Sequence record: PX667085.1
Origin: a phage
DNA length: 64,000 nucleotides
Direction: 5' to 3' (one strand)
Shown: piece by piece, positions 6,730 to 54,948 of the stretch
Layout of the letters: every line of letters starts with the position of its first letter
How positions within the stretch are numbered: the first letter of the stretch is position 1
The notes under the pieces: generated by a model
What the model was told of the DNA's origin: nothing
Seen by the model: the letters and a program-made list of their open reading frames with translations, nothing else
Databases searched by the model: none
Position numbers and translations under genes: made by a program

Positions 6730-6938
6730 TGATTTTGAGATGTGTTGGTATAATCGACACATTCAAAGACGTTTTTGACAAAGGGGCTTCTTATGAAGCC
6801 TCCGAAATGAAGAATGGTTTTTGTGATGTATTCGGTAAACGCCTGAAGAAAAACGGCGATCCTTGGCTAGGAGTTATGTCTTGTGGTCATATTATTGTAA
6901 ATGGTGTTGCCAAGTTTGAAATAATTAAGGAGGAATAA
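6729..6938 (+). CDS. hypothetical protein
   Basis: 69-aa ORF abutting nrdB stop. Confidence 0.45.
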   Translation: MILRCVGIIDTFKDVFDKGASYEASEMKNGFCDVFGKRLKKNGDPWLGVMSCGHIIVNGVAKFEIIKEE

Positions 6939-7090
6939 TGGCTGAAAAACTTATTTTTTGTCCTGTGTGTGGTGGGACTGGACAGATGGAAGTGGAAATT
7001 ATGGTAACATTTCCTTGCCTGAATTGTCATGGTGAAGGACGAGTAGTAGTCTTTGAAAAAGAAGGGTTGGAGGTAGAAGATGGAGAGTGA
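6938..7090 (+). CDS. small zinc-ribbon protein (50 aa)
   Basis: CPVCGG...CLNCHG; RBS AAGGAGGAA; below ORF-table size cutoff. Confidence 0.4.
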   Translation: MAEKLIFCPVCGGTGQMEVEIMVTFPCLNCHGEGRVVVFEKEGLEVEDGE

Positions 7091-40537: not shown

Positions 40538-40559
40538 GACAATCTCCTCTCATCGTTAG

Positions 40560-42030
40560 CCATCTTTCATGGCAATCATCAATCACCAACATCATACGAT
40601 CAATCTTCGGCAATTACAATCGAATTATCATAGGGGATTCCTATCAATTATCCTATATATACCGATTATTTTTGACACCCCATTCTTGTATAAAAAGTAA
40701 CCCAAAATATCTACGGGGAGAGATTATTTCGACACACCCTGTTTCATGGCAATCACGGCAAGAATATCTAATAGAATCAATATGATATGGCAAAAATCAT
40801 GGCGTATACGTAAGAAGTGCTTAACGCGAATTTTCGGGCCGTCAGGTCCACGCAGCGACAATTCCCAAATATCATGCGAATGAGAATAATTATCATTCGT
40901 ATTCAATGACTTATGCAAGGCTCATGCCAACGTAGCGACAAGGTGGGCCACTCGATTATAAATCACACAAACACTTATTTATCAATGGCTTGGCAACTTC
41001 ATCATATGACGGAACAATGTCAACTAATCCCGCTCATGACAAGCAGACTATTATTTATATGAGAATGATTATTATTTAAACGTTTATTAACATAAAAACT
41101 AAAATAAATCAAGATTATTCTGATTTTATTTACGTTTAAGAGAAGATGCTCAACATCCTACCGGATCGCCGTTGGCAATCCTCGGATATTTACGCCCCCA
41201 TGATTAAGGTTTATCTCTTTCTTAGTGCTCAACATTCCCGCCCGTGGCGGTAACATTTCGCCCCCAAAATTATTGACTTTTATTCTATTATGTGCATAGT
41301 GTGCAATGTATCGGAATGATGATAATCATCCTCCCATTGCCCCCAATAATTATTGCCATGCTAATGATTTCATATTGTAACCATTACAATGATTATTGTT
41401 ATTGCGCTAATGTTATGATCTTGGTAATTACATATAATGCTAATAATAAGCCAGCGCAATAAGTGTAAGCGTCATTACGCTTGCAATTATTGCAAGCTAC
41501 GCAGTAACAAGAAATAACCATCACCGATGGTTATGATTGTTGGGGTGTAGTTGGCTTATTATTAGCTCGCTATGTGTCCGGCATAGCGTGCTAATGATGA
41601 TCCTGGGAATGATTCGTTTTGTAATGATTTCATTCAGTCACTATTATGGCAATAGTTATTATTTTAATGGTTTCGTTTGTTATTGTTCGTTAGTTGGTTG
41701 TTTTGTCGTGTTATCGTTATCTTGCTTAGTATTCATCATGGTTTGATTGTTTGTCGTTATCAATCATCTTGCTATTATTCCTTTGATTATGATTAGTTTG
41801 CTTATTGTTTTAGGTTGTTGGTTAGTTAGTTGTTGCGAACTGTTATCAACATTATAGTTATGCGCTTATATTGCATATATAATCATGTATAGATGATAAT
41901 GGTTATCATTGCACTAGAAAGGAGGTAAAAGGGTGTTTTTGATGGTTTGTTGTTGGTTGTTGATCGATTTTAACCGCTATAAATGGCTCTCTAACAGCCT
42001 GTTACCCTGGGAGGTATGGTTATTCGTTTA
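40560..42030. repeat. 1.4-kb non-coding palindrome- and repeat-rich region (candidate origin/regulatory hub)
   Basis: No convincing ORF; GAGAATrATTATyATT at 40882 and 41061, ATGATAATCAT-type palindromes, T/G-rich short repeats. Confidence 0.5.
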
Positions 42031-42111
42031 ATGGTTGATTAGCTCGATACCGCGATTTATTCAATTTTGTTCTGTGTCGGTTTTTCATAGGGGAAAGCTA
42101 TCAACATTGTT

Positions 42112-42154
42112 CGGGCAAAAAGAAAGGGCGCTTGGTGCGCCCCTTGTTTTGTTG
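42112..42154. terminator. bidirectional intrinsic terminator
   Basis: GGGCGCTTGGTGCGCCCC hairpin flanked by A- and T-tracts. Confidence 0.65.
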
Positions 42155-42158
42155 TCAA

Positions 42159-42578
42159 TTATAACGCTTCATAGATTGAGTAGATCCGGTTTGCCAGGTC
42201 ATTACGAAAGCGGAATTTTTCATCACGTTTGATCATCAGATCCTTAAAACCGCATTCTTTCAGTGCTTCATTAACTTTATGGCGGCAAACGTTCATATTA
42301 TCCTGCGCGTCACCAATAAACTTATTGCTGTGATGCATTGCTTTGATCTCTTCCTCTAATACCAGGGCAACTACACGGATCGGATCAAGCTGATATGCGG
42401 TAACATCCATGCGGCATTGTAAACGGCTTTTAACATCGTTTACCGGATATACTGCAACCTCTTCCCCGTCAACGTTCACGATAACCAATTTACCATCGAT
42501 TTCGAAGCCTTTGGCGGCGCTACCGTGACAAAAAGCGTTATCGAAGGAGTAAGCTGGATTATTTGATTTAATGTTCAT
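42159..42578 (-). CDS. hypothetical protein
   Basis: 139-aa ORF; promoter TTGACA within CCCCTATTGACAGGGG upstream. Confidence 0.55.
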   Translation of the reverse strand: MNIKSNNPAYSFDNAFCHGSAAKGFEIDGKLVIVNVDGEEVAVYPVNDVKSRLQCRMDVTAYQLDPIRVVALVLEEEIKAMHHSNKFIGDAQDNMNVCRHKVNEALKECGFKDLMIKRDEKFRFRNDLANRIYSIYEAL

Positions 42579-42688
42579 GGTGTTGTCCTTTGTTTCGTTT
42601 CGTTGTTTGCTGCCAGTGAGTTAAATATAATATAACGCCGATCCCCTGTCAATAGGGGATAGCGCATTATTTACATTTCTTTACGTTA

Positions 42689-42709
42689 AAGGGCGCTTGG
42701 TGCGCCCTT
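42689..42709 (-). terminator. terminator-like hairpin
   Basis: AAGGGCGCTTGGTGCGCCCTT, same hairpin as 42126-42143. Confidence 0.45.
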
Positions 42710-42717
42710 GTATAATC

Positions 42718-43086
42718 TTACTTTGTGCTGTTGTAAACGTTATCGCGTTCAACCATCACGGCAAGGCGGATCAGTTGATCAGTTGTATCGCGTAAATTGT
42801 CGGGCCATGTTTTACTGTTCCAGCTATCCAGGTTTGACTGTATATAGGTTTCAATGGCTTGATCCATATTATCAAACAAGTTTTCCTCCAGGCTCTCGGC
42901 TGTTTCACACTGGAAAGCATTAGCGACACTATTAATCAATAAGCAAGCCAGTAAATCAGCATTACGCCAATTTTTACGGATAGTTTCATCTGTCAAATAA
43001 CCAACGAGATTAACCTTTGCGCCAGTGGTTGACGTTGCGATCACTTCTTGTGCTTTTTCAAGTGCTTTAATTGCTGATTTGCTCAT
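42718..43086 (-). CDS. hypothetical protein
   Basis: ORF; start at internal ATG (MSKSAIK) after AGAGGAAAAG. Confidence 0.5.
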   Translation of the reverse strand: MSKSAIKALEKAQEVIATSTTGAKVNLVGYLTDETIRKNWRNADLLACLLINSVANAFQCETAESLEENLFDNMDQAIETYIQSNLDSWNSKTWPDNLRDTTDQLIRLAVMVERDNVYNSTK

Positions 43087-43164
43087 CTTCTTTTCCTCTT
43101 TGTGGGCTTGCTGTATTGCTCGCCCTACGCAATAACTATAAATTAACAGGAGAAACAAAGCAAG

Positions 43165-43398
43165 CTATTTTTTATAAAATTTTTCTGCTGTGATATTCTT
43201 CCCAGTAGGCTTAACCACTTGCAAGATCTTATCATGTGCCGAACGTCCAAAAGAGTAAGATCCGTACACGGTAAACCAATAATCCCCGTTCGGTTGAACG
43301 GTTACGGCGGCGTACGGTGTACCTCTTTCATTATCCCCGATAAAGTGAGAAACATTACCGTTAACATTTGGTTTAGTGCTTTTAATTTGTTCGATCAT
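43165..43398 (-). CDS. hypothetical protein
   Basis: 77-aa ORF preceded by PeSL-like cassette. Confidence 0.5.
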   Translation of the reverse strand: MIEQIKSTKPNVNGNVSHFIGDNERGTPYAAVTVQPNGDYWFTVYGSYSFGRSAHDKILQVVKPTGKNITAEKFYKK

Positions 43399-43416
43399 GA
43401 TATGACTCCTAAATCA

Positions 43417-43475
43417 GGCGGGAAACATTCCCGCCCTACGTGATAAATGATAATGTAAGCGTGATCCGGTGTCAA
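43417..43475 (-). promoter_or_regulatory. PeSL-like cassette: TTGACA-17-TATCAT promoter plus 5' stem-loop GGCGGGAA-ACA-TTCCCGCC
   Basis: -35 at 43470-43475, -10 at 43447-43452, hairpin at 43417-43435, RBS and ATG at 43398. Confidence 0.6.
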
Positions 43476-43787
43476 TAGGTAGGATTGTAAAGATTTGATA
43501 GTTTATCTCTTTGATGTTTTGTTGTTTGATAGATGTTAGCTATCAATATATAGCGGGGTCGTCCGGTGATTATCTTCCCCTGCTCCCAGGTGCCGCCCGT
43601 TCAATAAGTATAACAAAAAACAGGACAAAAACAAGCCCTGTTTATTTATCTTAAAACCAGTTGCCAACCGTTTCCAATAGGTCACTGACTACCAGGACAA
43701 CATTAATCAGCACATATTCGACCAGGAAGGGAATAAGCGCCAGCGTTGCTACTACGATCCCCATTGTGATGATTACCTTTCTCATGG

Positions 43788-44072
43788 TTAGCGGCTTACG
43801 TAAGCTTTACCGTTTACGGTCATCGGTATGGCCTCAAGGTCTGGATCTTCCTTAAGGTCGCGTGCAAGCTCACCGCAGCGGATACCCTCGAATCCGTAGT
43901 ACTCTGTTGTGCCGTCCTGGAAAGTTTTAGCGGCAAGGCATAGGCGATAATTAACGCCGATCCGGTTTATTGCGTTGATATCGGTTAACGTGATGGATTC
44001 AGGCAAATCATTAGCCATTACAGGCGTGTTAATACCAACAACCAGGGCAACTACTGCGATCATCTTTTTCAT
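43788..44072 (-). CDS. secreted/periplasmic protein (signal peptide)
   Basis: MKKMIAVVALVVGINTPVMA N-terminus. Confidence 0.5.
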   Translation of the reverse strand: MKKMIAVVALVVGINTPVMANDLPESITLTDINAINRIGVNYRLCLAAKTFQDGTTEYYGFEGIRCGELARDLKEDPDLEAIPMTVNGKAYVSR

Positions 44073-44127
44073 GTGTCTATCCTCTTCCTATTGCGTTTAA
44101 TGGGGGCGTTACCGCCCTGCTTATGGT

Positions 44128-44364
44128 TTATTGATTGATGTTATAATGAAAATTATTTTCTTCAATAGCTTTTAAAATAAAAGCCGTGATCGCTTTCGTG
44201 TCTACTTGTTCGAACGTATCAGAATAGCACCAATAATAATCATCCCCTACTTTCGGCGGGTAAACCTGGACAAGGAGATCGCCACCTGGTTGATCTATAA
44301 GCTCAACATGCAAGCCGGATGATTCAGCGGTTTTAACGGCGTTTAATACTGTTGCAATACTCAT
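44128..44364 (-). CDS. hypothetical protein
   Basis: 78-aa ORF; hairpin GGGGCG-TTG-CCGCCCC upstream. Confidence 0.5.
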   Translation of the reverse strand: MSIATVLNAVKTAESSGLHVELIDQPGGDLLVQVYPPKVGDDYYWCYSDTFEQVDTKAITAFILKAIEENNFHYNINQ

Positions 44365-44408
44365 AATCTTTCCCTTTCTGATGTGGGGCGTTGCCGCCCC
44401 TTTGTTGA

Positions 44409-44708
44409 TTAGATCGCTGTTTCCAGTAGTTCGGCTAACGTCTTACCGCCTGATAGTTGGTCTAACGTTTGCTCTTCTGGCAAGAAATTAGCTGATATCA
44501 AACCGACTTGATTCCCTTTGTGCCAATTAGCTTGACGGATGATTCCATCCTTTAAGGATTTTACCGCCATTGTGCAACCGTCGCCAAATGATTCATTTTT
44601 ATGATCCATCACTTCGTAAGCGCCCAGTTTGCTGCTGTTAGGCACCATTAACGCGAATACATCACCAACAACCAGTTTTTCTACGGTAACAATAGCGATA
44701 GTTTCCAT
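44409..44708 (-). CDS. hypothetical protein
   Basis: 99-aa ORF preceded by PeSL-like cassette. Confidence 0.5.
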   Translation of the reverse strand: METIAIVTVEKLVVGDVFALMVPNSSKLGAYEVMDHKNESFGDGCTMAVKSLKDGIIRQANWHKGNQVGLISANFLPEEQTLDQLSGGKTLAELLETAI

Positions 44709-44726
44709 TTTACTTTCCTCATTATT

Positions 44727-44783
44727 GGCGGCACCATTGCCGCCCTACGTGGTAAATATTAGCACACTGGCGATCTGTGTCAA
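44727..44783 (-). promoter_or_regulatory. PeSL-like cassette (TTGACA-16-TAATAT, hairpin GGCGGCA-CCAT-TGCCGCC)
   Basis: Hairpin at 44727-44744, -35 at 44778-44783. Confidence 0.6.
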
Positions 44784-44789
44784 TACTTT

Positions 44790-45176
44790 TTATTCAATAT
44801 AAATCAAATTATCTTCACCAATGTAAGCCGACACGTTCGGCATAAACTTAGCTGCATTGGTTAGGCGGTTGGCTGTGTTAGTGGTGTATATTTCAGGGCG
44901 ATCCCAAAAGCCTACGCCGTGACCGTTACGGGTAAAATGTAAATCATTCCCGATCTGGTTGGCTGTTGCGCCGTCGCTCATTGCCTCAGAGATAGCGGCA
45001 AGATTAGCATTAATAAAGGCTGTTACATCCTGGGCGATCCGTTCGTCCGCGCTAGGAGAAAAATCATAATCGTCTAAGTTATCAATAAAATTACCTTCAT
45101 GATCCCTTGCTGATTCAGCAAAAATAAAGGCTTCTTTATAGCCGTTGATGATTTCAATAATGATTTCTGTTTTCAT
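44790..45176 (-). CDS. hypothetical protein
   Basis: 128-aa ORF. Confidence 0.5.
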   Translation of the reverse strand: MKTEIIIEIINGYKEAFIFAESARDHEGNFIDNLDDYDFSPSADERIAQDVTAFINANLAAISEAMSDGATANQIGNDLHFTRNGHGVGFWDRPEIYTTNTANRLTNAAKFMPNVSAYIGEDNLIYIE

Positions 45177-45397
45177 GCTGTACGCTCGACAATAATAATA
45201 GTTTGCGGGATCTCGTTTTCTACTACTAACAAGGCTTTTTTCTGTGTGATAGATATTTTAACACGTTGTAAAGTAGCGGTAAAATCTTTCATTTCATTAT
45301 GCGCGGATTTAGTACAATGCCAGATCTCAGGCTTACCAACTTGTAAGCCGCGTAAAAATTCCGTTTTGCCTGTTTTGTTCGTGATCATTTGTTTCAC
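45173..45397 (-). CDS. hypothetical protein
   Basis: 74-aa ORF. Confidence 0.45.
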   Translation of the reverse strand: MKQMITNKTGKTEFLRGLQVGKPEIWHCTKSAHNEMKDFTATLQRVKISITQKKALLVVENEIPQTIIIVERTA

Positions 45398-45768
45398 CTT
45401 AACCGATACCGTGGGAAGATAGGATCATATTAGCCATAGTTGCAACTACTCCAACCGATAACGCCAGGCCAACCACTGCAACCGTGAAAATTTTCTCTAA
45501 CATGATTCTACCCTCATTAATGGGCGTTGCACCATTGCCCCGCCCTACGTAATACACTTTACTAGATAACAAATTATTGTCAAGCTTTATTTTACTTCCC
45601 AAACGGAAAATTCGCTGCCTGTTGGGATCATTTTTTTAATCTTGTTTGCTGCCGCTACCAGGTCAACGGCTTGTACTGTAATAATATAACCAATTGTCGA
45701 GGCTGTTGCGTTGAAAGTTTTCATTATATTGCCCTTTAATACAGGCGGGATTAATCCCGCCTTTTTGA

Positions 45769-45939
45769 TTACTCTTCATTATCGCCGTTATAGTATTCAA
45801 TGCCGTTTTCATCGGTTACGGTGATGTTAACGCCACCGATAGCAACACGATCACGGGCAAACGTCATAGCTTCATTTAAATCTTCAGACCAAAAAATATT
45901 GTGACCTTTGCGCGATACATAAAACATAGTCGGGATCAT
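45769..45939 (-). CDS. hypothetical small protein (57 aa)
   Basis: Table ORF 45769..46023 trimmed to ATG downstream of hairpin 45963-45983. Confidence 0.45.
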   Translation of the reverse strand: MIPTMFYVSRKGHNIFWSEDLNEAMTFARDRVAIGGVNITVTDENGIEYYNGDNEE

Positions 45940-46024
45940 GATTTGTTTCTCTTCTGTTATGAGCGGTGGACCATTCCGCCGCCCTATGTGGTAAACTTTA
46001 CTACGTTGTTTGCCTGCTGTCAAA

Positions 46025-46309
46025 CTATTTTTTAATGTTTTGCCCTACAAAATCGATCACTTCCTTAAGCTGTCTCTCTGTCATGATCGTACCTGGTAAC
46101 TCTTCTTTAATTTCTTCCGGTAAATAGATATTACCGCGCCAGGTTAACAAACAACCGTTTTGATCTTCGCAGATAGAATAAGAAAACATCCACTCGCAAT
46201 CATTTTCAAGCTCCCAAAAACACAAAAAGTCTTCTTTCCCTAAGTTTTCAACGGTTAAACATAATCCGCGACGTGCTGCATAATTAGTTAGGCTTTTTGT
46301 GATTTTCAT
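46025..46309 (-). CDS. hypothetical protein
   Basis: Table ORF trimmed to MKITKSL start below hairpin at 46331-46346. Confidence 0.5.
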   Translation of the reverse strand: MKITKSLTNYAARRGLCLTVENLGKEDFLCFWELENDCEWMFSYSICEDQNGCLLTWRGNIYLPEEIKEELPGTIMTERQLKEVIDFVGQNIKK

Positions 46310-46507
46310 GATTTTTCTCTCTTCTTGTGAGCGGCACCATTGCCGCCCTACAAGATACATATTACCAGATTAAGCGGACTTGTCAAACTATTTTTTCTTT
46401 TTCTTTGCTTTCAATCGTCTAAGGTTACGGCTGGACTTATTGCGCAAGGCGCTTAGATCGTCGTACCCTTTCCATGCTTGCATATCTTTCGGATTCATGT
46501 TATCCCC

Positions 46508-46669
46508 TTACTTGTTAGCCGGATCATATACCAGGACCGCGCCGCTTGCTTTCACGCTTTCCGCTTCATAGTTGCGCAGATCGTTTTCTGTAAGATTGAG
46601 CGCGATCACTTCCTCGATCTCAACGCCAGCGGCAAGGGCGATCTCTTTGATAATATCTGTTGTTTTCAT
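46508..46669 (-). CDS. hypothetical small protein
   Basis: ATG (MKTTDII) after AAGGTG; table start lies in upstream gene. Confidence 0.4.
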   Translation of the reverse strand: MKTTDIIKEIALAAGVEIEEVIALNLTENDLRNYEAESVKASGAVLVYDPANK

Positions 46670-46897
46670 GGTGTGCACCTTATAAGATGATTGATAAGAT
46701 AGTGACAACGAAAGCGATTATACTGATGGCAAATGTCATCTTTTTACCTTCGGATACTGCCGGATTTTCTACCGTGTATTCTACTGTGTACTTGCTCATC
46801 GTGTAATCCTCTCGTTTGCTTTGGGAACTATTCCCGCCGCCCTATGAATTAAATATACACTATCTCAAAATGATTGCAAGCCTTTTTCTAAATTACT

Positions 46898-47182
46898 TTA
46901 TTCAGTAAACAAACCATCATTTACAACGGCGGCGATGATCTCCCGTGCCATTGATTCAGGGAAAGGGGCGCTATAGTCCTGGCTTGTCTCATCGGTATCG
47001 GTGATCCAATGATAAGCTAACGAGTAAAAGCCTTTACTAACTGTTTTCAGTGAGATGATGATCACTCGGTCAAGCTTATTGGTGAATGTTGCCGTTAATG
47101 TGTTACCCTCCTGCGTCATGTTGGACAAGTAAGCGAGATCATTAATCAGGGAAAACATTAGCACGGTGTTAGCTTTACTCAT
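46898..47182 (-). CDS. hypothetical protein
   Basis: Trimmed to MSKANTV start below hairpin 47203-47218. Confidence 0.5.
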   Translation of the reverse strand: MSKANTVLMFSLINDLAYLSNMTQEGNTLTATFTNKLDRVIIISLKTVSKGFYSLAYHWITDTDETSQDYSAPFPESMAREIIAAVVNDGLFTE

Positions 47183-47253
47183 GATTGCATCCTCAAAGGG
47201 GCGCGGCACTATTGCCGCCCTACACGATAACTATAACACAATGTAAAACAGGG

Positions 47254-47460
47254 TCAACCTTTATTTTTCCACGGTGTCAGCTTGTTAATCATTGGTGATA
47301 AATAGCGTTTACCAACGTAAAACAGTACGCCAACTGATGCAACGGCGGCGACCTCATGCATAGCCGACGGGAAACGGGTATCATAATAAGATCCAATAAT
47401 AGCAATAGCGGCAACGGCTGCAACGTCGATAATGATTTTCTCTTGTTTTGCGGTGATCAT
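47254..47460 (-). CDS. small membrane protein
   Basis: IIIDVAAVAAIAIIGSYY hydrophobic segment; hairpin 47483-47497 upstream. Confidence 0.5.
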   Translation of the reverse strand: MITAKQEKIIIDVAAVAAIAIIGSYYDTRFPSAMHEVAAVASVGVLFYVGKRYLSPMINKLTPWKNKG

Positions 47461-47545
47461 AGTATTTACCTTTTTGTATGGTGGGGAACTATTCCCCGCC
47501 TGATGTAATACAGTTTAACAGGTCCGGTTATGGTGTCAACCACTT

Positions 47546-47731
47546 TTAAAGATATTTTATGCTAATGACGTTTTCAGGTTTTACCTTGTTATGATGTGCA
47601 TCAACATAGATCAAACCATCGTCAGAAAAGCCCAGGATCACGCCCTGCGCGATAAAACCGTACTCGTCACGGTAACGCACGGCTATTTTTAATGTTGCGT
47701 TGTAGGCTGTTTTAAGCTCGTTTAAAGTCAT
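47546..47731 (-). CDS. hypothetical protein
   Basis: 61-aa ORF. Confidence 0.45.
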   Translation of the reverse strand: MTLNELKTAYNATLKIAVRYRDEYGFIAQGVILGFSDDGLIYVDAHHNKVKPENVISIKYL

Positions 47732-47758
47732 TTTTGTTTATCCTCTACATGTAAAAAG

Positions 47759-47781
47759 AAAGGGCGCTTGATGCGCCCTTG
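47759..47781 (-). terminator. intrinsic terminator (minus strand)
   Basis: AAGGGCGCATCAAGCGCCCTT hairpin followed by TTTCTTTTT on minus strand. Confidence 0.55.
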
Positions 47782-48012
47782 TTATGTTAATCCTCTAAAT
47801 CCATCCAATTATATTTGTCACTCTTCCCGCGCTTTGTTTTATTACGCTTGTCACCTTTGCGGATCACTTCCTCGTTCCAGGCCTTGCGGATCTTGGAAGA
47901 TTGAATTTTTTCTGCGCGATTAGATGTATTCATTTTGTTTCCTCTTTATATGAGCGGCACCATTGCCGCTATATTGTTAATTTAAACTGTTTTGTAAAAT
48001 TGTCAAGGTTTA

Positions 48013-48366
48013 TCATTCATAAGAGCAAGCAAGGATCACGCCTGCAATATAAAGCCAATAATTTTCCCTTTCTCGTTGGATTTTATCATCGCTGCTATTC
48101 TCTTTAATGTATCCCCAGGATGTTAACAAGCGATCAATTTCCCAATATTCGAAAGCTATATTAATATCTGATGGCAAACCTTGTAACCATGATGCAAGTG
48201 CTTTAACAATACTATAATTAAAACGTGATTGATTATCAGGGTACCAGTACTCGGAATTAAAACGGCGCATCAATTCCGCGATCTTCTCTTTTTCGGTTGT
48301 AATACCGTAATCATTAAAATCGATAGCGGCAAGGATGTACTCTTTAATTGCATTTTGTGCTTTCAT
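48013..48366 (-). CDS. hypothetical protein
   Basis: 117-aa ORF; hairpin 48385-48401 upstream. Confidence 0.5.
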   Translation of the reverse strand: MKAQNAIKEYILAAIDFNDYGITTEKEKIAELMRRFNSEYWYPDNQSRFNYSIVKALASWLQGLPSDINIAFEYWEIDRLLTSWGYIKENSSDDKIQRERENYWLYIAGVILACSYE

Positions 48367-48444
48367 GGTCTTTCTCTCTTTTTAGCGGGAACTATTCCCG
48401 CCCTACGTGTAACAGTTTACTGAAAATTAAATCCGTGTCAAGCT

Positions 48445-48666
48445 TTATTTTGTTACTACCATTTGGTACCCTGTTTCAATGTTAGTAAATACTGTTATCC
48501 CGTCCTGGCGTTCACTCATTAGCATACAAGGCGCTAACATCCTTTCTACTGCCTTGCACTCATTGTAAACGGCGGTTATGTCTCCTGCGGCCTTGTCTTC
48601 TGTGGTGAATGTATCGTTTATGTAAACTTGACTAGCGACAACGGCGACAATAGCGAAAGTGATCAT
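48445..48666 (-). CDS. hypothetical protein
   Basis: 73-aa ORF. Confidence 0.45.
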   Translation of the reverse strand: MITFAIVAVVASQVYINDTFTTEDKAAGDITAVYNECKAVERMLAPCMLMSERQDGITVFTNIETGYQMVVTK

Positions 48667-48739
48667 GATATTTTTCTCTTTATGTGTTTCTATTAGTTGA
48701 TATTACAGCAATTCGCAGATTATTTTTTAGCAATTCGTG

Positions 48740-48958
48740 CTATTTACTCATAACAGTATCGAAAACAAATTTTTCTTTGTTGTCAAAGCTCACGTATCCG
48801 ATTCTACCACGCAAGCCGCAAGTAGTGCCGTATTCGTAACCGTCAAGACCTTTAACCTTCCAATCCACGCCCATTAAAACCGCATTATATTTCTGACCAA
48901 CTACAAACGCGCCACCAGTTGATTCAATGCAAACAACTTTAATTTTACGGATTGCCAT
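48740..48958 (-). CDS. hypothetical protein
   Basis: 72-aa ORF. Confidence 0.45.
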   Translation of the reverse strand: MAIRKIKVVCIESTGGAFVVGQKYNAVLMGVDWKVKGLDGYEYGTTCGLRGRIGYVSFDNKEKFVFDTVMSK

Positions 48959-49296
48959 TTTCTTTCTCTCTTTCTGGTGATTGGTTTCTCTTCTCTATAG
49001 CGCCCATTGTAAGGCGCTATAACGAAAAGTCAACGATTATTTTTTAAGGCTTAAAGTACCTAACTTGTCAGCATGACGCAGACCAGGGAAGATCCATTTG
49101 CCTGACTCATCTTTCACCGGGGCTTTAAGCGTAGCGCCCAGGTTGGCGGCGTTAACTTTACGTGCAACGTTGCGAGCGGCTTCACGGGTAGCGAAAGTGA
49201 TCATGGTGTTTTCCTCTTCTCTTTGTTAGGCGGTGGACCATTCCGCCGCCTTGATGTAATACAGTTTACTTTATTTTATTAAGATTGCAAGCGGTT

Positions 49297-49512
49297 TTAT
49301 GAAATAATTGTCAAAGTAAAATCATAAGACTGATTTAATTTATATTGTACTTTATTGCCGTAGTAGTCACCTTTACGTAAAGATCCGCGAATACCTATCA
49401 CATCCTTTACATCTTTAAGATTTTTTACGCCTGTAATGTCTTTATTGAAATACTCGTCATCTGAAAATAAAACTTGACTTGCATTTTTTAACAGTGTACG
49501 GATATTAGCCAT
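49297..49512 (-). CDS. hypothetical protein
   Basis: 71-aa ORF preceded by PeSL-like cassette. Confidence 0.5.
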   Translation of the reverse strand: MANIRTLLKNASQVLFSDDEYFNKDITGVKNLKDVKDVIGIRGSLRKGDYYGNKVQYKLNQSYDFTLTIIS

Positions 49513-49537
49513 CGTGATAATCTCTCTTCTGTTGTGA

Positions 49538-49593
49538 GCGGCACTATTGCCGCCCTACGTAATACAGTTTACTCTTTTTCTTTCCGGTGTCAA
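49538..49593 (-). promoter_or_regulatory. PeSL-like cassette (TTGACA-16-TAAACT, hairpin GCGGCA-CTAT-TGCCGC)
   Basis: Hairpin 49538-49553, -35 at 49588-49593. Confidence 0.6.
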
Positions 49594-49602
49594 CAATCTT
49601 TT

Positions 49603-49830
49603 TCAGATTAATTCATCCAGGCATAACAGGCGATCAACGTTGAGATCGGTTAGGCTGATGGTTGGCACCTGGTAGGATTCGATGTACTCAACGCTTGTAT
49701 ATTCCCCAAAATTAGCAATAGCCCATTTATTCAAGATCTCACATACATCATTAATCTTTTTGTTTGTTACAACTGCAATGACCTGGGAACTGCCAACGGT
49801 GCCGGATACGCGAACAATATTGATAGCCAT
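49603..49830 (-). CDS. hypothetical protein
   Basis: 75-aa ORF; hairpin 49852-49872 upstream. Confidence 0.5.
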   Translation of the reverse strand: MAINIVRVSGTVGSSQVIAVVTNKKINDVCEILNKWAIANFGEYTSVEYIESYQVPTISLTDLNVDRLLCLDELI

Positions 49831-49920
49831 AATCTTTAATCTCTCTGTTTTGGCGGGAAACCACTTCCCGCCCTATGTGATACATCTTACACTAATTTTA
49901 AACGTTGTCAACTGTTTTTA

Positions 49921-50160
49921 TTACATTCCAACCATCGCGGCACGGATCGCAGTAGTGCTATATTTGAAACCGTCTGGCGTTTTATCTTGTCCAGTTTGTT
50001 CCAGAAAAAGCATCATATCCCGCGCCGCATCATTACGATTAGCATTAGCGTTAATAAAATCTTGGGCCAACCGGTATAACGATTCATCGTTATTAATCCA
50101 AAGGCTTACATTCCAATGAGTTTTGTTTTTGTGACCGTTGTACATTTTAGATTTAGCCAT
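49921..50160 (-). CDS. hypothetical protein
   Basis: 79-aa ORF; hairpin 50185-50201 upstream. Confidence 0.5.
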   Translation of the reverse strand: MAKSKMYNGHKNKTHWNVSLWINNDESLYRLAQDFINANANRNDAARDMMLFLEQTGQDKTPDGFKYSTTAIRAAMVGM

Positions 50161-50249
50161 GATTTTTCTCTCTTTTTCAGTGAGGCGGGAAGTGTTCCCG
50201 CTCTCTATGTAATACAGTTTACTCTTTTTATTCGTGCTGTCAATGCTTT

Positions 50250-50615
50250 TTATAAATCTTTTTTACGTTTTACATCGCTCGCATGACTGTATACAGTGAT
50301 CCCATTGTCACGGCAAAAACGGGAAAGATACGCGCCGCGTGAAAACTCTTTACCTTCCATATTAATAACCTTGCTAAATTCTTCCAGGGCGACGGTATCA
50401 AAATGATCACCATAGCCATATTGAAACGGAACGTTAACCACCTCGATCAGTTTACCGCCGATCTCAACGTCAACCATTAAAGAAAAATATGTGTTACCGT
50501 AGGACTGTTGAAACCAGCGACGGGCGCTAATGTGCACCGCTTCAATGCTGGATAATTCAATTTTAGCCGTGTTAGCCAGGGTAGCATAAGCGGAAACATT
50601 GATATTAATAGCCAT
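50250..50615 (-). CDS. hypothetical protein
   Basis: 121-aa ORF; hairpin 50643-50655 upstream. Confidence 0.5.
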   Translation of the reverse strand: MAININVSAYATLANTAKIELSSIEAVHISARRWFQQSYGNTYFSLMVDVEIGGKLIEVVNVPFQYGYGDHFDTVALEEFSKVINMEGKEFSRGAYLSRFCRDNGITVYSHASDVKRKKDL

Positions 50616-50912
50616 GATGATAATCTCTCTTTTTGGTTAGTGGGAAGTATTCCCGATAAAAGTTATTATGCTTATACTATCACTCATTGTCAATAGTATA
50701 AGACTAAAACTTTTAACGATAATCGTTATAGGCTTTATTGACCTGGCGAATGTAACATTCGAAAGCAAGATCAATGTATTCGTATTCACGCACATAATCA
50801 CCATAGGTCACTACATACATTTTTAAAGTTTCCTCATAAGCCAGGAGGATCGAATCTAAACCTATAATCTCAGTTTTTGCAATGATAGCCATGATGTTAA
50901 CCTTTTATTGTT

Positions 50913-50969
50913 GGCGGCACCATTGCCGCCCTACGTGATAAACTATACCAGAAGTTTAAACAGTGTCAA
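50913..50969 (-). promoter_or_regulatory. PeSL-like cassette (hairpin GGCGGCA-CCAT-TGCCGCC, -35 TTGACA)
   Basis: Hairpin 50913-50930, -35 at 50964-50969; precedes short ORF about 50700-50893. Confidence 0.55.
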
Positions 50970-50975
50970 CCGTTT

Positions 50976-51338
50976 TTATTCGTAAATTTTACCGCTTTCG
51001 GCCCATACCATAACGCGGCGCATACTATCCCAAGTGTTTTGATCCAGGTTTAATCCGTGCAATTCTTCGGTACTTCCCAGACCAGGTACCGCCTTGTTGT
51101 AAGTTGCATATAAGCGCCCTTGATACTCATACGCCAGGGTGAGATCCGTTTGAATCATCTTTTTAAGCATAGCATTAAGCATCATATTAGCGGCATGTTG
51201 ATCACGTTTTAGCGGTAACATATCAATAAGGGCGCGATAAGCTGAAACATGAATATCAACCGTTTCACGTGGTAAATTTTTCATCTCATCGCGGAAAGAT
51301 ACCAGATTAAACATGATAGTATTGATTTGCTTGCTCAT
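50976..51338 (-). CDS. hypothetical protein
   Basis: 120-aa ORF; hairpin 51360-51381 upstream. Confidence 0.5.
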   Translation of the reverse strand: MSKQINTIMFNLVSFRDEMKNLPRETVDIHVSAYRALIDMLPLKRDQHAANMMLNAMLKKMIQTDLTLAYEYQGRLYATYNKAVPGLGSTEELHGLNLDQNTWDSMRRVMVWAESGKIYE

Positions 51339-51607
51339 TGTGTTACCCTTTTTTGTTTTGGCGGGGAAGTATTCCGCCGCCCTATGTGATACATCTTATC
51401 AGATTAAAAAACGTTGTCAAGAATATTTTTTAGAAAATAATAGCCGCTACTACAACCCAAAATGGAACGGCGAAAATGAGAGCGTTAATCGTTCCAACCG
51501 TCAAGCTATTTTCTTTATTAATCATTGTAAGCCTCTTGCATAATTTCACTATGAGCGGCACCATTGCCGCCCTACGTGGTAAATATTATGCCAGTGGCGG
51601 CGATATG

Positions 51608-52174
51608 TCAAAGACTATTTTCAAAGTTTTCTAGTGCGATCCTTTTTTCTTCCTCTGTCGGCTGATAATCAGGAAAAGCATCAACACACAACAACGGCGG
51701 GATCTCTTCGTACTCTTCCTCTTCCGTTGTCTCCTCGTCTTCCTCCTGGGCTATGGCTGCAATTTTGGCTAATTTTCTTTCGGCTTGAATCAATTTACCA
51801 TCAAGTACGTTTTTTGCCATGTTGTAAGCGGTCCAGGTGATGCGCTTACTTTCCAGGGCCTGATCGAGCGCCGCTATCTTGCTGGGGTATTCATCCAGGA
51901 CACGAAAAGCCGGATCAATTTTGTACAAAGGATTATCTTTCGCGCCGTCGCTCGCATCTTCCGCACTGGATAAATCAGCGTTACCATTTGCCAGCCAGCC
52001 AGGGCGCACATAACGCGCTTTTACGTTGCCGTTACTACGTGCTAACCTGTTACCTATTTGCTCACCGCTATATCCCGTGGATTCATCGATAAGATGATCG
52101 GGAATGATGCGCGGATCATCTGCTTCATGTTTTACCCAAGACTGGATCACATATTCGCGGCCCATATTAACCAC
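51608..52174 (-). CDS. hypothetical protein with acidic C-terminal region
   Basis: 188-aa ORF. Confidence 0.55.
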   Translation of the reverse strand: MVNMGREYVIQSWVKHEADDPRIIPDHLIDESTGYSGEQIGNRLARSNGNVKARYVRPGWLANGNADLSSAEDASDGAKDNPLYKIDPAFRVLDEYPSKIAALDQALESKRITWTAYNMAKNVLDGKLIQAERKLAKIAAIAQEEDEETTEEEEYEEIPPLLCVDAFPDYQPTEEEKRIALENFENSL

Positions 52175-52424
52175 CTTTTTTCAACAATTGGCATACTTTG
52201 AAAAGACTTGCTGAATCCTTGCAAGGGTAGAAAGATGTACGATAATCACGTACGCCAACCTTGCGGATCTCGATGTTTTCGCATGTTGTTTGATCAAAGA
52301 TATTTATTTCATCACGCCCCCTTATATAAACATAGTGGGGATGTATTAACGCATATTTTGCTAATCTGTAAAAAGCGTTATCTTTGAACGCGATCACGTG
52401 ACCTTTTAATTTGATGTAAAACAT
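52167..52424 (-). CDS. hypothetical protein
   Basis: 85-aa ORF; hairpin 52443-52459 upstream. Confidence 0.5.
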   Translation of the reverse strand: MFYIKLKGHVIAFKDNAFYRLAKYALIHPHYVYIRGRDEINIFDQTTCENIEIRKVGVRDYRTSFYPCKDSASLFKVCQLLKKGG

Positions 52425-52500
52425 TCTACCACCTTACAAATAGCGGGAACTATTCCCGCTTTATGTAACATATTAACAAATTATTCGTTAATGTCAAGCT

Positions 52501-52773
52501 TTAAAGCAAAAACGCTACATCTTGCGCTTTTAGTGTAGTATCAACCATTTTTGGGCTTTTATAATCAACAAAGCGCGCGGTTTTTTCAATAGCAAAACCG
52601 AGATAATCTTGTTTATTGAATTTACATTCTTTCTTAAATGTTTCCCGCGCCACGGTGATCGCTGCGTCCAGGGATAAACGCCCGTCAATGTTGATATTTG
52701 CGAAAGATCCGCCACCGCTCATAGGTTTACCAGTGGTGCCAGCTACGATCATTGTTGCGCTATATGATGCCAT
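52501..52773 (-). CDS. hypothetical protein
   Basis: Table ORF trimmed to MASYSAT start below hairpin. Confidence 0.5.
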   Translation of the reverse strand: MASYSATMIVAGTTGKPMSGGGSFANINIDGRLSLDAAITVARETFKKECKFNKQDYLGFAIEKTARFVDYKSPKMVDTTLKAQDVAFLL

Positions 52774-52795
52774 GATGATAATCTCTCTGTTGTGA

Positions 52796-52856
52796 GCGGC
52801 TGGACCATTCCGCCGCCCTATGTGGTACATCTTATCAGGTTGTTGTTTGTTGTCAA
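52796..52856 (-). promoter_or_regulatory. PeSL-like cassette (hairpin GCGGCTGGA-CCA-TTCCGCCGC, -35 TTGACA)
   Basis: Hairpin 52796-52816, -35 at 52851-52856. Confidence 0.55.
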
Positions 52857-52862
52857 TACTTT

Positions 52863-53060
52863 TTATTCTATTCCTGCAATTTGATTAACGCGCTTGCATT
52901 TTGTAGCGTGCTGGTCTTCTGTAATGACTCCCATTTCTAACAGGGAATCAATGAAAGATAAAACCGTTTCATGATCATCCTGGGGATGACTGAACTCAGT
53001 AAAACCGTTTACTATTACGTTGATTTGTCCAGCTTTCGCCACAATATGCAATGTTGCCAT
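52863..53060 (-). CDS. hypothetical protein
   Basis: 65-aa ORF, last gene of the array. Confidence 0.5.
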   Translation of the reverse strand: MATLHIVAKAGQINVIVNGFTEFSHPQDDHETVLSFIDSLLEMGVITEDQHATKCKRVNQIAGIE

Positions 53061-53195
53061 GATCTTAACTCCAGGTGATAAATGATGTTTTTTGTTGGTG
53101 GACGGTGGATTATGGAGATCCTCACCTTTGCCCGTCCTGCATTGCGCCCTCCTGTTGTTTATTGTCGTTGTGCCGCGCCCCCCTCGACAAGATGA

Positions 53196-53224
53196 ATACT
53201 ACGCTACCAGGTGAGGAACGTCAA
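53196..53224 (-). promoter_or_regulatory. sigma70-type promoter TTGACG-17-TAGTAT (minus strand)
   Basis: Divergent from the plus-strand promoter at 53258. Confidence 0.45.
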
Positions 53225-53257
53225 CCACTTTTTCAATCTTTTTTATTTTCTTTTTGC

Positions 53258-53286
53258 TTGCTATATATAAAGGAAAGGGCTATCAT
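53258..53286 (+). promoter_or_regulatory. sigma70-type promoter TTGCTA-17-TATCAT
   Basis: Followed by GCGCC-AACCAG-GGCGC leader hairpin and RBS. Confidence 0.5.
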
Positions 53287-53333
53287 CTTTCTACCGCGCC
53301 AACCAGGGCGCACAACAAAGAAAGGGCGACACC

Positions 53334-53501
53334 ATGACAAATACTACATTACACCTTATGCACTCATTGGGCTGGCAAGGCGGCACGGTGCACCAGGTAG
53401 CAAGCGCAACGGGCTTAAAGGTTGAAACAGTTCTCAACCTGGGCGATCATAAGGTGGAAGAGATAGATCATTTTGATACGTTCGCAAATGGTTATCTATA
53501 G
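53334..53501 (+). CDS. small helix-turn-helix DNA-binding protein (55 aa, Cro/XRE-like)
   Basis: TVHQVASATGLKVETVLNL HTH-like segment; own promoter; below ORF-table cutoff. Confidence 0.5.
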   Translation: MTNTTLHLMHSLGWQGGTVHQVASATGLKVETVLNLGDHKVEEIDHFDTFANGYL

Positions 53502-53602
53502 GCTTGCAGTGGCGGCGGGGAAAGCAAGATACCACCAGGGGCGCGGGGCGATATGTATTTTTGGTTAGGTGTCCTATCCTGGCAAGAAAACAAAAAATAA
53601 TC

Positions 53603-53631
53603 TTGACAAGCCCAGGGATCGGGCTTATACT
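53603..53631 (+). promoter_or_regulatory. near-consensus sigma70 promoter TTGACA-17-TATACT with no downstream ORF
   Basis: Hexamers read directly; next 750 bp have no convincing plus-strand ORF. Confidence 0.55.
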
Positions 53632-53850
53632 GTTTTACATACAGAAGAGGAAGCGCCACCCCACGGCGTAAAGGCGGGGCTAACATACCAGGGGCACTGG
53701 TTGGAAGGTTGATCGCCGGTAGGCTGGGCGCTATATATTTGTAAAGAAATGTAAAGATAAAATAATCGCTTGCTTTCCTGGCTGGATCTGTTATTCTTAT
53801 TACATGGCGAGGGGACACGGGAGCGCGAGACAAACACCACCCCTGCGCGT

Positions 53851-53964
53851 CATTCTCTAAATGAGAATGATTATCATTTACCTTATTGAATAAGAATCAA
53901 TCTCATTTATAAACTTAAATGCGAATCATTCTCATTTGCATTTCCACATGAGAACTCTTCTCAT
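53851..53964. promoter_or_regulatory. cluster of operator-like palindromes (Fur-box-like)
   Basis: CATTCTC-TAAAT-GAGAATG, GAGAATGATTATCATT, AATGCGAATCATTCTCATTTGCATT, ATGAGAA-CTC-TTCTCAT. Confidence 0.45.
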
Positions 53965-53980
53965 CCCCACCTGCATAAAT

Positions 53981-54188
53981 TTTTGTAAACTTTAAATTTT
54001 GCTTTTGTACTTTCATTTTTGTAAAAGCAAAAAAACTTTAAATACTGTGGGCGCGCAAAATTTTTAAAATTTTCCTTGACTTTTGAGTTTTGTTTTGTAT
54101 CTAACATTTTAAGATAATTTTCCTAAACTTTAAATTTTGGTTTTCAACTTTCACTTTTGTAAATTCTTAAAAAGTTTAAATAATTTGA
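53981..54188. repeat. two ~65-bp AT-rich direct repeats
   Basis: AAACTTTAAATTTTGsTTTT..ACTTTCAyTTTTGTAAA occurs at about 53981 and 54122. Confidence 0.5.
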
Positions 54189-54405
54189 GGGATTTTTGAG
54201 ATAATAGGTAGTGGAAATTTGAGATAACCTTTAATCTTATTGGTAGACCTTCAGGAACTCACCTAAATCGAATCCTAGTGATGCAAACTGAAAAAGATAA
54301 GTGTTTGTATAAGACAAAATAACAGGCTCTCTACGGTGCTGTAGGAGCCTTATTTCTGTGCTACAAAGTGACACCTTTGTTCTAAAAATGAAAAAAGTTA
54401 AAATA

Positions 54406-54948
54406 TCACAAATATCGTCTTTGCGGTATTTTGTCTGGGAAAAGTATTTCGATCAGTTTGTTATGATATTTGCCTAAAAGATTCTGCCCTTTCCAGGTGG
54501 CAGGGTTTAGCACCCCTGGTTCATACATCCCCATTCCAATTCCGTAAACCTTATCGTAGGGGCTTGCTTCAACAAACGTTTTGTATTGGTAAAGGTGTAA
54601 GTCTGCATACAAATCTGGATTCTGTACATATTTCAAGCATAAACCTCGCATAACAATACGCTCACGGTTCTCTTCCCATACGTTGTTATCAAAATCCGAC
54701 ACTGCCCTACCCATACGTTTGTAATAAGCTTGGATCTTCTCATCTTTCCGTATCAAACTATGAGTCAGAATAGCCTGTGCAGTGTTGTGGTCATTAAAAA
54801 GCAAAGCTTTACGCCACATCATGTATTGTTCGACACAATTAAATGTTTGATTGTAACCTGGTTCGGTTTCTGTAAAGGGTGCAATATACCAATTACTAAA
54901 CACATCTTTATGTGAAAAGAAGAATACATAATCATCAGTTATTCGCAT
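54406..54948 (-). CDS. NADAR-family (YbiA-like, DUF1768) protein
   Basis: VFFFSHKDVFSNWY, EQYMMWRKALLF and YGIGMG motifs. Confidence 0.7.
   Translation of the reverse strand: MRITDDYVFFFSHKDVFSNWYIAPFTETEPGYNQTFNCVEQYMMWRKALLFNDHNTAQAILTHSLIRKDEKIQAYYKRMGRAVSDFDNNVWEENRERIVMRGLCLKYVQNPDLYADLHLYQYKTFVEASPYDKVYGIGMGMYEPGVLNPATWKGQNLLGKYHNKLIEILFPDKIPQRRYL

Follow-up and report, generated by a model that had tools for sequence, protein, structure and literature searches.

A gene-free control region with a structured leader RNA, possibly a transcription-activated replication origin, in phAPEC8-like and rV5-related myoviruses

We describe a gene-free locus in the genome of a phAPEC8-like Escherichia coli phage. 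It lies within 64,000 nucleotides (nt) of sequence record PX667085.1; this whole stretch was analysed, is called the window, and all positions refer to it. On the evidence of the sequence and of comparisons between genera, the locus forms the core of a control region without genes, which is conserved in phAPEC8-like and rV5-related myoviruses. The locus contains a predicted promoter P1, a structured RNA (RNA1), a second predicted promoter P2, four phased palindromes, three AT-rich repeats and an intrinsic terminator (Table 1). From these sequence features and from the analogy with known origins we tentatively propose, at a probability of about 40%, that the locus is a lytic replication origin which is activated by transcription and has a structured leader RNA. 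Host RNA polymerase starting at P1 and P2 would open or prime the AT-rich repeats, as in the T7, T4 oriF/oriG and ColE1 origins. RNA1 would then constitute the structured 5' domain of the origin transcript, the three repeats may be binding sites of a lineage-specific protein, and the palindromes possibly are operators that gate transcription into the repeats, the binder being either host Fur or a phage protein.

Many candidates for phage therapy and biocontrol come from the phAPEC8, rV5 and PVP-SE1 groups, which are in wide use for this purpose; their origin and their early non-coding transcription are undescribed. The rV5 paper labels the gap only as a "non-coding" box (PMC3606486). We found no literature on an origin, a non-coding RNA, Fur sites or RNA-seq for these phages, and no description of RNA1, of P2 with the palindromes or of the triple repeats came up in the papers on rV5 and Certrevirus or in the other literature searched. 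Should the locus be an origin, it would provide an engineering handle and an insight into how replication starts in a large myovirus without a known initiator. For RNA1, which has a clear promoter, a clear boundary and covariation, this would mean a new family of phage RNAs.

Results

Conservation and setting of the locus

The window belongs to the genus Phapecoctavirus (Stephanstirmvirinae), and the 2.2 kb around the locus are 97% identical to ECO340P1 and phAPEC8. The locus fills a gap of 1.35 kb; both bordering genes are on the minus strand. In a sensitive DNA search covering Stephanstirmvirinae and Vequintavirinae only 53634-53940 aligned between genera, at 67-77% identity. The interval is fully conserved in Seunavirus, Certrevirus, Mydovirus and Henunavirus and partially in Vequintavirus, where rV5 retains promoters, palindromes and repeats but lacks RNA1. 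Throughout these genera the homologue occupies a gap of about 1 kb whose bordering genes are on the minus strand, and the genes which flank the compared loci do not align across genera. Most of those records have no annotation for the conserved stretch. The locus itself is annotated inconsistently, with a minus-strand open reading frame (ORF) in phAPEC8, a plus-strand ORF and "repeat regions" in anhysbys and tuntematon, and nothing in others. Among 5,426 E. coli genomes no match to the locus was found, and host-derived DNA was rejected.

An earlier note, made from the letters of this DNA, had listed promoter-like sites, a GC-rich segment, palindromes and direct repeats. All of these sequence features were found at or near the positions it gave, the majority above chance. 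The GC-rich segment that it placed after P1 corresponds to the GC-richest 100 nt of the entire window (53632-53731, 0.60), which coincide with RNA1. About 350 nt away, in the repeats, lie the AT-richest 200 nt (53986-54185; GC 0.215, 4.6 standard deviations under the mean). GC skew on the transcribed strand is positive at 53400-53800.

Two predicted early promoters

P1 was the best-scoring promoter site in the region and agrees with the near-consensus site noted earlier. In the 64 kb there are 11 sites, P1 included, which match at least 11 of the 12 hexamer positions, compared to 3.3 on average in shuffled sequence. P1 is the only one of them on the plus strand from 22 to 61 kb, where all genes are on the minus strand. 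In 24 distinct homologues its hexamers are kept (-35 TTGACA, TTGCAA or TTGACG; -10 TATACT, TATATT, TATAAT or CATAAT) and the GC-rich spacer differs. P2, overlooked by the earlier note, showed the same pattern: 25 homologues, rV5 (TTGCTT-N-TATAAT) among them, keep the hexamers and vary in the spacer. Thus, P1 and P2 combine sigma-70 hexamers at a spacing of 16-18 nt with evolutionary conservation of these hexamers. Both are on the plus strand, opposite to every neighbouring gene. We predict that they are two conserved host-type early promoters. A further promoter that had been suggested at 54076-54110 (TTGACT-16-TATCTA) did not hold up: the letters are present, but the site failed in the promoter scan and conservation does not extend beyond the genus.

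The pair of direct repeats TGTAAAGA in front of P2 recurs as an upstream element of ordinary early genes in BIS47 (L014 ~4760-4720 and ~3830). Judged by this recurrence, the pair belongs to early promoters of these phages in general. Downstream of P2 the GC-rich segment is conserved in primary sequence and includes an invariant GAGACAAWCACC. No consensus RNA fold was obtained for its P2-proximal part (53804-53850; RNAalifold -1.87 kcal/mol). Paralogues of the segment exist elsewhere in BIS47 and in locus L081, and in rV5 they are in tandem. As a side observation, the "PHIRE promoters" annotated in phAPEC8 (L001 739-758, 1755-1774, 2644-2663 and 3283-3302) are GC-rich hairpins GTAGGGCGGCAATGGTGCCGCTCA directly behind host-type promoters and probably form stem-loops at the 5' end of early mRNAs.

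A conserved structured RNA at the start of the P1 transcript

RNA1 begins with a purine-rich 5' leader containing several GGA motifs. In hairpin 1 CGCC (53654-57) pairs with GGCG (53665-68), and CCCC in its loop (53659-62) is able to pair with GGGG at 53676-79. Hairpin 2 comprises 53684-53703. In 20 distinct sequences the column identity averaged 81%. At A53685-U53702, 11 of these sequences have A-U and the other 9 have G-C, and Mydovirus shows both states. Compensatory double changes were present in six of the nine pairs of hairpin 2. The partners of the CCCC/GGGG pairing are CCAA and TTGG (CTGG in one) in four divergent sequences. For the whole model 94.9% of the cells were paired, compared to 22-50% with slid partners, and seven pairs had double changes; the observed values were reached by none of 500 shuffles. 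The earlier note had suggested a structured non-coding RNA after P1 and covariation as a check. The compensatory changes bear out this suggestion for 53638-53722, but not for 53804-53850, where a consensus fold is missing.

A covariance model of RNA1 scored 99.5 bits at the locus and had no other match in the window. There is one copy in each genome that has RNA1; the model did not match in rV5, T5-like phages, or the other viral and bacterial loci tested. An 18-mer scan of bacterial genome contigs returned 74 matches, close to chance (about 70 by our estimate), with covariance scores of at most 28.6 bits. Rfam 15 gave no match at gathering score in the 64 kb, and at E≤10 on 1.7 kb nothing overlapped RNA1. 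A tRNA/tmRNA scan of the window was negative. The 3' boundary can be set at GGATCGCTGGTA because in Raoultella phage Ro1 an ORF of about 900 nt is inserted exactly after RNA1. Taken together, covariation supports RNA1 as a new conserved structured RNA motif without an Rfam family.

The insert in Ro1 (L016 ~6290-7040) contains an ORF starting MKKVYGVGVND and parts RNA1 from P2 by about 900 nt. The ORF looks like a homing endonuclease.

Palindromes, AT-rich repeats and terminator

The four palindromes have the consensus AATGAGAATGATTCTCATT; box 1 reads AATGAGAATGATTATCATT in its 19-nt form. One to four copies are present per genus, and box 1 is invariant across genera. The palindromes built on GAGAATG had been seen before; their phasing and their likeness to Fur boxes are additions of this study. 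Box 1 together with ATTCTC at 53851 forms a hairpin with a U-rich tail (-11.3 kcal/mol, z -4.15), which by folding prediction could be a weak terminator. In other genera this hairpin has only 5-7 AU-rich pairs. In the T5-like phage EC100 (L146 2230-2800) the injection-stop region of the T5 type begins with about nine TGTCGGATTTGCACA repeats; these are followed by 5-6 Fur-like boxes, then by DnaA boxes in pairs and finally by CTGTATAAATATACAG, which resembles a LexA box.

The direct repeats reported earlier were recovered at 53978 and 54116 as 72-nt units with 82% identity, and a degenerate third copy at about 54067 was added. Two of the units carry the motif AAAAASTTTAAATA (54031 and 54169), which within the 64 kb is found at this locus only; EmilieFrey and FKP3 have kept 2-3 copies of it. 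Every genus examined has three tandem repeats of 60-79 nt, spaced 63-78 nt, with a subfamily-specific sequence: the units contain CTCGATCGAG, TTTTCGAAAA and AAAAATTTTTT in Vequintavirinae and AAAAASTTTAAATAAT in Stephanstirmvirinae, the latter nowhere else in the window. The record of EC152 begins inside the third repeat; this start is arbitrary because there is no terminal repeat at that point.

The terminator is about 700 nt from P1. Its hairpin has -17.2 kcal/mol (z -2.9) on the plus strand, followed by UUAUUUCUGU, and -18.7 kcal/mol (z -4.1) on the minus strand, followed by GUUAUUUUGU. In phAPEC8 it is annotated as an ARNold terminator. It is predicted to close the plus-strand non-coding transcription unit as well as the minus-strand operon upstream of it.

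Table 1. Features of the control locus and its bordering genes (window positions).
Feature	Position	Strand	Description
Left neighbour	52863-53060	-	65-aa ORF
Gene X	53334-53600	+	small conserved protein (relatives: 88 aa); 3' end 2 nt from the P1 -35 hexamer
P1	53603-53631	+	TTGACA-17-TATACT, predicted near-consensus sigma-70 promoter, 11/12; expected start ~53637-53639
RNA1	53638-53722	+	conserved structured RNA, ~85 nt, start of the P1 transcript
Direct repeats TGTAAAGA x2	53740-53757	+	directly 5' of the P2 -35 hexamer; conserved in all genera
P2	53770-53797	+	TTGCTT-16-TATTCT, predicted conserved early promoter; expected start ~53804
GC-rich segment	53804-53858	+	GGCGAGGGG..GAGACAAACACC..CTGCGCG downstream of P2; primary-sequence conservation
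Four 15-nt palindromes	53862, 53891, 53920, 53949 (span 53862-53963)		exactly 29 nt apart
Three tandem AT-rich repeats, ~70 nt	53978-54049, ~54050-54115 (degenerate), 54116-54187		highest AT content in the window
Two short direct repeats GGAWWTTTGAGATAA	54190-54227		23 nt apart; conserved within Phapecoctavirus
Bidirectional intrinsic terminator	54324-54350		~700 nt from P1
Right neighbour	54406-54948	-	NADAR-domain gene

Gene X and neighbouring DNA

Gene X directly precedes P1 and was overlooked by the earlier note. Its N-terminus appears helix-turn-helix-like by eye. In the window phage the gene is broken by an in-frame TAG (53499-53501) at codon 56, which is W (TGG) in phAPEC8, anhysbys, tuntematon, L010, EmilieFrey and A5-4; the TAG may have arisen by nonsense mutation or else reflect an error in sequencing. 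Homologues of 86-100 aa are present in PhiTE (L013) and L012. Gene X matches PHROG 19316 (function unknown) and had no Pfam match. It is missing from CR3, SSE121 and BIS47 and therefore is not an obligatory part of the module. Because of its absence from several genera gene X is unlikely to encode the binder of the shared elements.

PhiTE is known for pseudo-ToxI, and this candidate was also considered and rejected: within 9 kb around the PhiTE homologue there is no ToxI-like repeat. To the left of the locus 53060-53177 (about 118 nt) is shared with ECO340P1, ZCKP1 and EF1-1 and missing from phAPEC8 and many relatives. It sits between a minus-strand promoter with a hairpin (~53224-53196) and the 65-aa gene. 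Further left, at 42000-53000, 11-12 kb of small minus-strand genes have a GC content of 0.41-0.43, weak GC skew and an AT skew of about -0.12; the minus-strand genes flanking this module have a GC content of 0.38-0.40 and a GC skew of -0.13 to -0.24.

Genome ends

A direct terminal repeat of 328 bp, identical in the independent Phapecoctavirus records of Mt1B1_P17 and WPEC2, corresponds to 40823-41150 of the window. This agrees with the short terminal repeats published for the subfamily. The repeat is situated in the second large non-coding gap (40540-42160). Both of its boundaries share TGCTYAAC, of which a third copy is near 41228. Fur-like boxes are present in this gap at 40877, 41056, 41316 and 41894, and the terminal repeat also holds an arrangement CATGGCG...GCGACAA...box like that of the control locus. 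The control locus is 12-13.6 kb from the left genome end; given the position of the terminal repeat, it is therefore not the terminus in this genus. The distance between locus and end varies, being approximately 12 kb in the present phage, 5.5 kb in phiWec187 and 51 kb in phiWec181. Because of this variation between genera the match to the T5 position "8% from the end" looks coincidental and was rejected.

In the rV5-like phage phiWec189 we noted a terminal duplication of 148 nt which has its start at one Fur-like palindrome and its end halfway through the following one (L225 1-148, L226 2353-2500). It was not seen in 107 other Vequintavirus records and therefore may be an assembly overlap; a palindrome-bounded terminal repeat was downgraded accordingly. 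The 159-kb record of WPEC2 (PV691511.1, L221/L222) is rearranged compared to the window, with abundant 76-79-nt repeats at the block joins, which suggests assembly artefacts.

Discussion

The locus as a candidate origin

The earlier note had named an origin or iteron region as the other candidate, and the anatomy of the locus is compatible with it. Several observations argue for an origin. The conserved island 53634-53940 stands between genes which do not align. An AT-rich region coincides with direct repeats, P1 and P2 point into these repeats, and the plus-strand unit is devoid of an ORF and closed by a bidirectional terminator. The repeats differ in sequence between subfamilies, as is expected of iterons which co-evolve with their binder. 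In the rV5 paper a T7-gp4-like primase-helicase is reported, and an origin could not be placed (PMC3606486).

A number of points weigh against an origin with a leader RNA. Within 53000-54400 neither DnaA boxes nor IHF sites were found. Known iteron origins rarely have repeats spaced at about 70 bp, and no initiator gene is consistently linked to the locus across genera, gene X being missing in several. GC skew is more negative on the right side of the locus than on the left, the opposite of what a bidirectional origin should display; this comparison is confounded by transcription bias and by the distinct 42-53 kb module. As to RNA1, its thermodynamic stability was no better than that of shuffled sequences (minimum free energy -25.3 kcal/mol, z = 0.06), and part of the fold is invariant and therefore not testable by covariation. 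Since RNA1 is absent from rV5, it is not essential to a shared function.

Alternative readings

That the locus is protein-coding, e.g. by phAPEC8_00257 (minus strand, 53492-53833) or by small ORFs annotated in relatives, can practically be dismissed. Hypothetical proteins are indeed annotated here in several records, yet their strand and position differ from record to record. The earlier note had considered ORF 53492-53833 an artefact, and properly so: it matched neither Pfam nor PHROG, and indels of 1, 4, 5 and 8 nt between genera fall inside the most conserved part and disrupt any reading frame. A coding frame conserved in relatives was looked for as counter-evidence and was not kept, as evident from these indels and the missing family matches. 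In addition, the ATG at 53805 is replaced by ATA in many genera, and substitutions preserve base pairs, not codons. On the plus strand no ORF of at least 40 aa begins within 53712-54730, as the earlier note had surmised for the DNA behind P1. A serious if doubtful candidate is a pair of stand-alone early small RNAs that act in trans, with P1 producing RNA1 and P2 an RNA of about 75 nt which ends at the box-1 hairpin. They might be regulators, protein sponges or anti-defence decoys; in this case the palindromes and the repeats would be DNA elements in their own right. The covariation and the very high conservation of RNA1 across genera fit such a role, and so do its purine-rich, GGA-containing leader and the terminator-like box-1 hairpin with its U-rich tail, the sole fold that RNAalifold retained in the P2 transcript. 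Yet a terminator is absent after RNA1, therefore P1 transcripts should continue into P2, and the box-1 hairpin shrinks to the few AU-rich pairs mentioned above in other genera. The GC-rich part of the P2 transcript has no conserved fold, RNA1 is missing from rV5 and no target was identified. The constant co-occurrence of the three repeats and the palindromes with the promoters would be left unexplained.

The palindromes led to two other readings. They may be operators of host Fur, and bound Fur would then block P1 and P2 according to iron status; in the decoy form replicating phage DNA would titrate Fur and derepress host iron uptake, the rest of the locus serving the circuit. We consider this unlikely as the main function of the locus; it is compatible with an origin, and both may hold together. 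Box 1 matched the E. coli Fur 19-mer GATAATGATAATCATTATC in 16 of 19 positions, the top match in the 64 kb, and the Vibrio Fur consensus AATGATAATAATTATCATT in 17 of 19, keeping A1-T3, A8, T9, T12, T13 and C16, all of which are among the positions important for binding (PMC7536154). The 7-1-7 consensus of Fur had six matches in the window compared to 0.84 expected, four of them in two large gaps, and Fur-like matches of at least 14/19 numbered 17 compared to 4.9 expected, concentrated in the two largest gaps. The exact 19-mer palindrome occurs in at least 120 unrelated environmental viral contigs (IMG/VR, L018-L137), which fits the site of a host factor better than a phage-specific one; in L051 it is positioned 10 nt after a consensus promoter, TTGACA-18-TATAAT. 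T5-like phages carry overlapping GATAAT/GAGAAT arrays beside DnaA boxes and a LexA-like box. On the other hand, of 65 phage boxes compared 57 have G at position 6, a T in the consensus of Fur, and 39 have C at position 14. Classical Fur boxes sit between -35 and -10 (PMC7536154), whereas those of the locus are about +55 to +160 relative to P2; the boxes of Vequintavirinae are located 45-100 nt upstream of a third promoter. Hexamers are usually arrayed contiguously, unlike the regular 29-nt spacing here. Among nine ORFs that adjoin the motif in other viral contigs there were portal and terminase genes and no iron genes, and as far as we found the literature does not connect Fur with any of these phages. 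It is a long shot that AATGAGAATGATTCTCATT represents Fur operators which unrelated virulent phages placed at genome-end and early-control DNA. If so, early transcription, the start of replication or the handling of DNA ends would be coupled to host iron status, or Fur would be titrated, and the long unexplained T5 palindromes palE-palJ would become testable with fur mutants. Rather improbable, too, is a genome-end module, in which the promoter and palindrome unit is paralogous to the concatemer-junction or terminal-repeat region and serves end processing, packaging recognition or transcription-driven entry of DNA, comparable to the A1-A3 promoters of T7 or the injection-stop region of T5. Two such palindromes (40877 and 41056) and the similar order of elements in the terminal repeat point in this direction, as do homologous palindromes in the T5-like injection-stop repeat region and the orientation of P1 and P2 away from the nearest genome end. 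In 14 of 39 whole viral contigs the palindrome was within 310 nt of a contig end (3.5 expected), but this enrichment could be due to repeats which break assemblies. The phiWec189 duplication from palindrome to palindrome would also fit, yet it was absent from the 107 other Vequintavirus records, two from the same laboratory included. The ends of this genus are 12 kb off and have a different shared motif, TGCTYAAC; moreover, the distance to the end is not constant between genera and DnaA boxes are absent from the region.

Comparison with known systems

The primary origin of T7 consists of the tandem promoters phi1.1A and phi1.1B followed by an AT-rich stretch; T4 oriF and oriG are R-loop origins. 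The present locus is alike in that tandem promoters are aimed at the most AT-rich DNA nearby, the transcript is non-coding and the phage has its own T7-gp4-like primase-helicase. It differs by its host sigma-70 promoters, by a folded RNA at the start of the transcript and by the palindromes and three repeats of about 70 bp in front of the terminator; origin activity is putative here. RNA II of ColE1 is a replication primer. It shares with RNA1 a structured, G-rich 5' domain transcribed toward the site of initiation, whereas RNA1 is much shorter, has no antisense partner and lacks similarity in sequence or in Rfam. The put RNAs of HK022 and the nut sites of lambda are cis-acting RNAs just downstream of early promoters. 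They are likewise highly conserved two-hairpin RNAs of about 70-85 nt directly behind a strong early promoter; sequence similarity to RNA1 is absent, and the present locus has no downstream genes which need anti-termination.

Compared with a genuine Fur box, the candidate sites are similar as 19-bp AT-rich palindromes that retain 16-17 of 19 positions, including T12, T13, C16, A8 and T9, and dissimilar in that G6 is preferred, C14 is frequent and the boxes are phased by 29 nt downstream of a promoter. Through the palindromes the locus is connected with this phage's own terminal repeat and with the injection-stop region of T5, a functional puzzle for decades. Repeat region 3 of the T5 injection-stop signal contains palE-palJ, DRC, DRE and DRD (Davison, bioRxiv 10.1101/866236). 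Both regions are conserved, gene-free, larger than 1 kb and rich in palindromes and direct repeats, and they share 55 nt of the palindrome array at 85% identity. The paired DnaA boxes, the 10-kb terminal repeat and the DRD repeats of T5 are all absent from the control locus, which has RNA1 and P1/P2 instead. Lacking DnaA boxes and with a terminal repeat of only 328 bp located 12 kb away, the locus was rejected as an injection-stop region of the T5 type. A non-coding control or origin region is known as a kind in phages; the version with RNA1 and with phased, Fur-like candidate operators shared with T5 is new.

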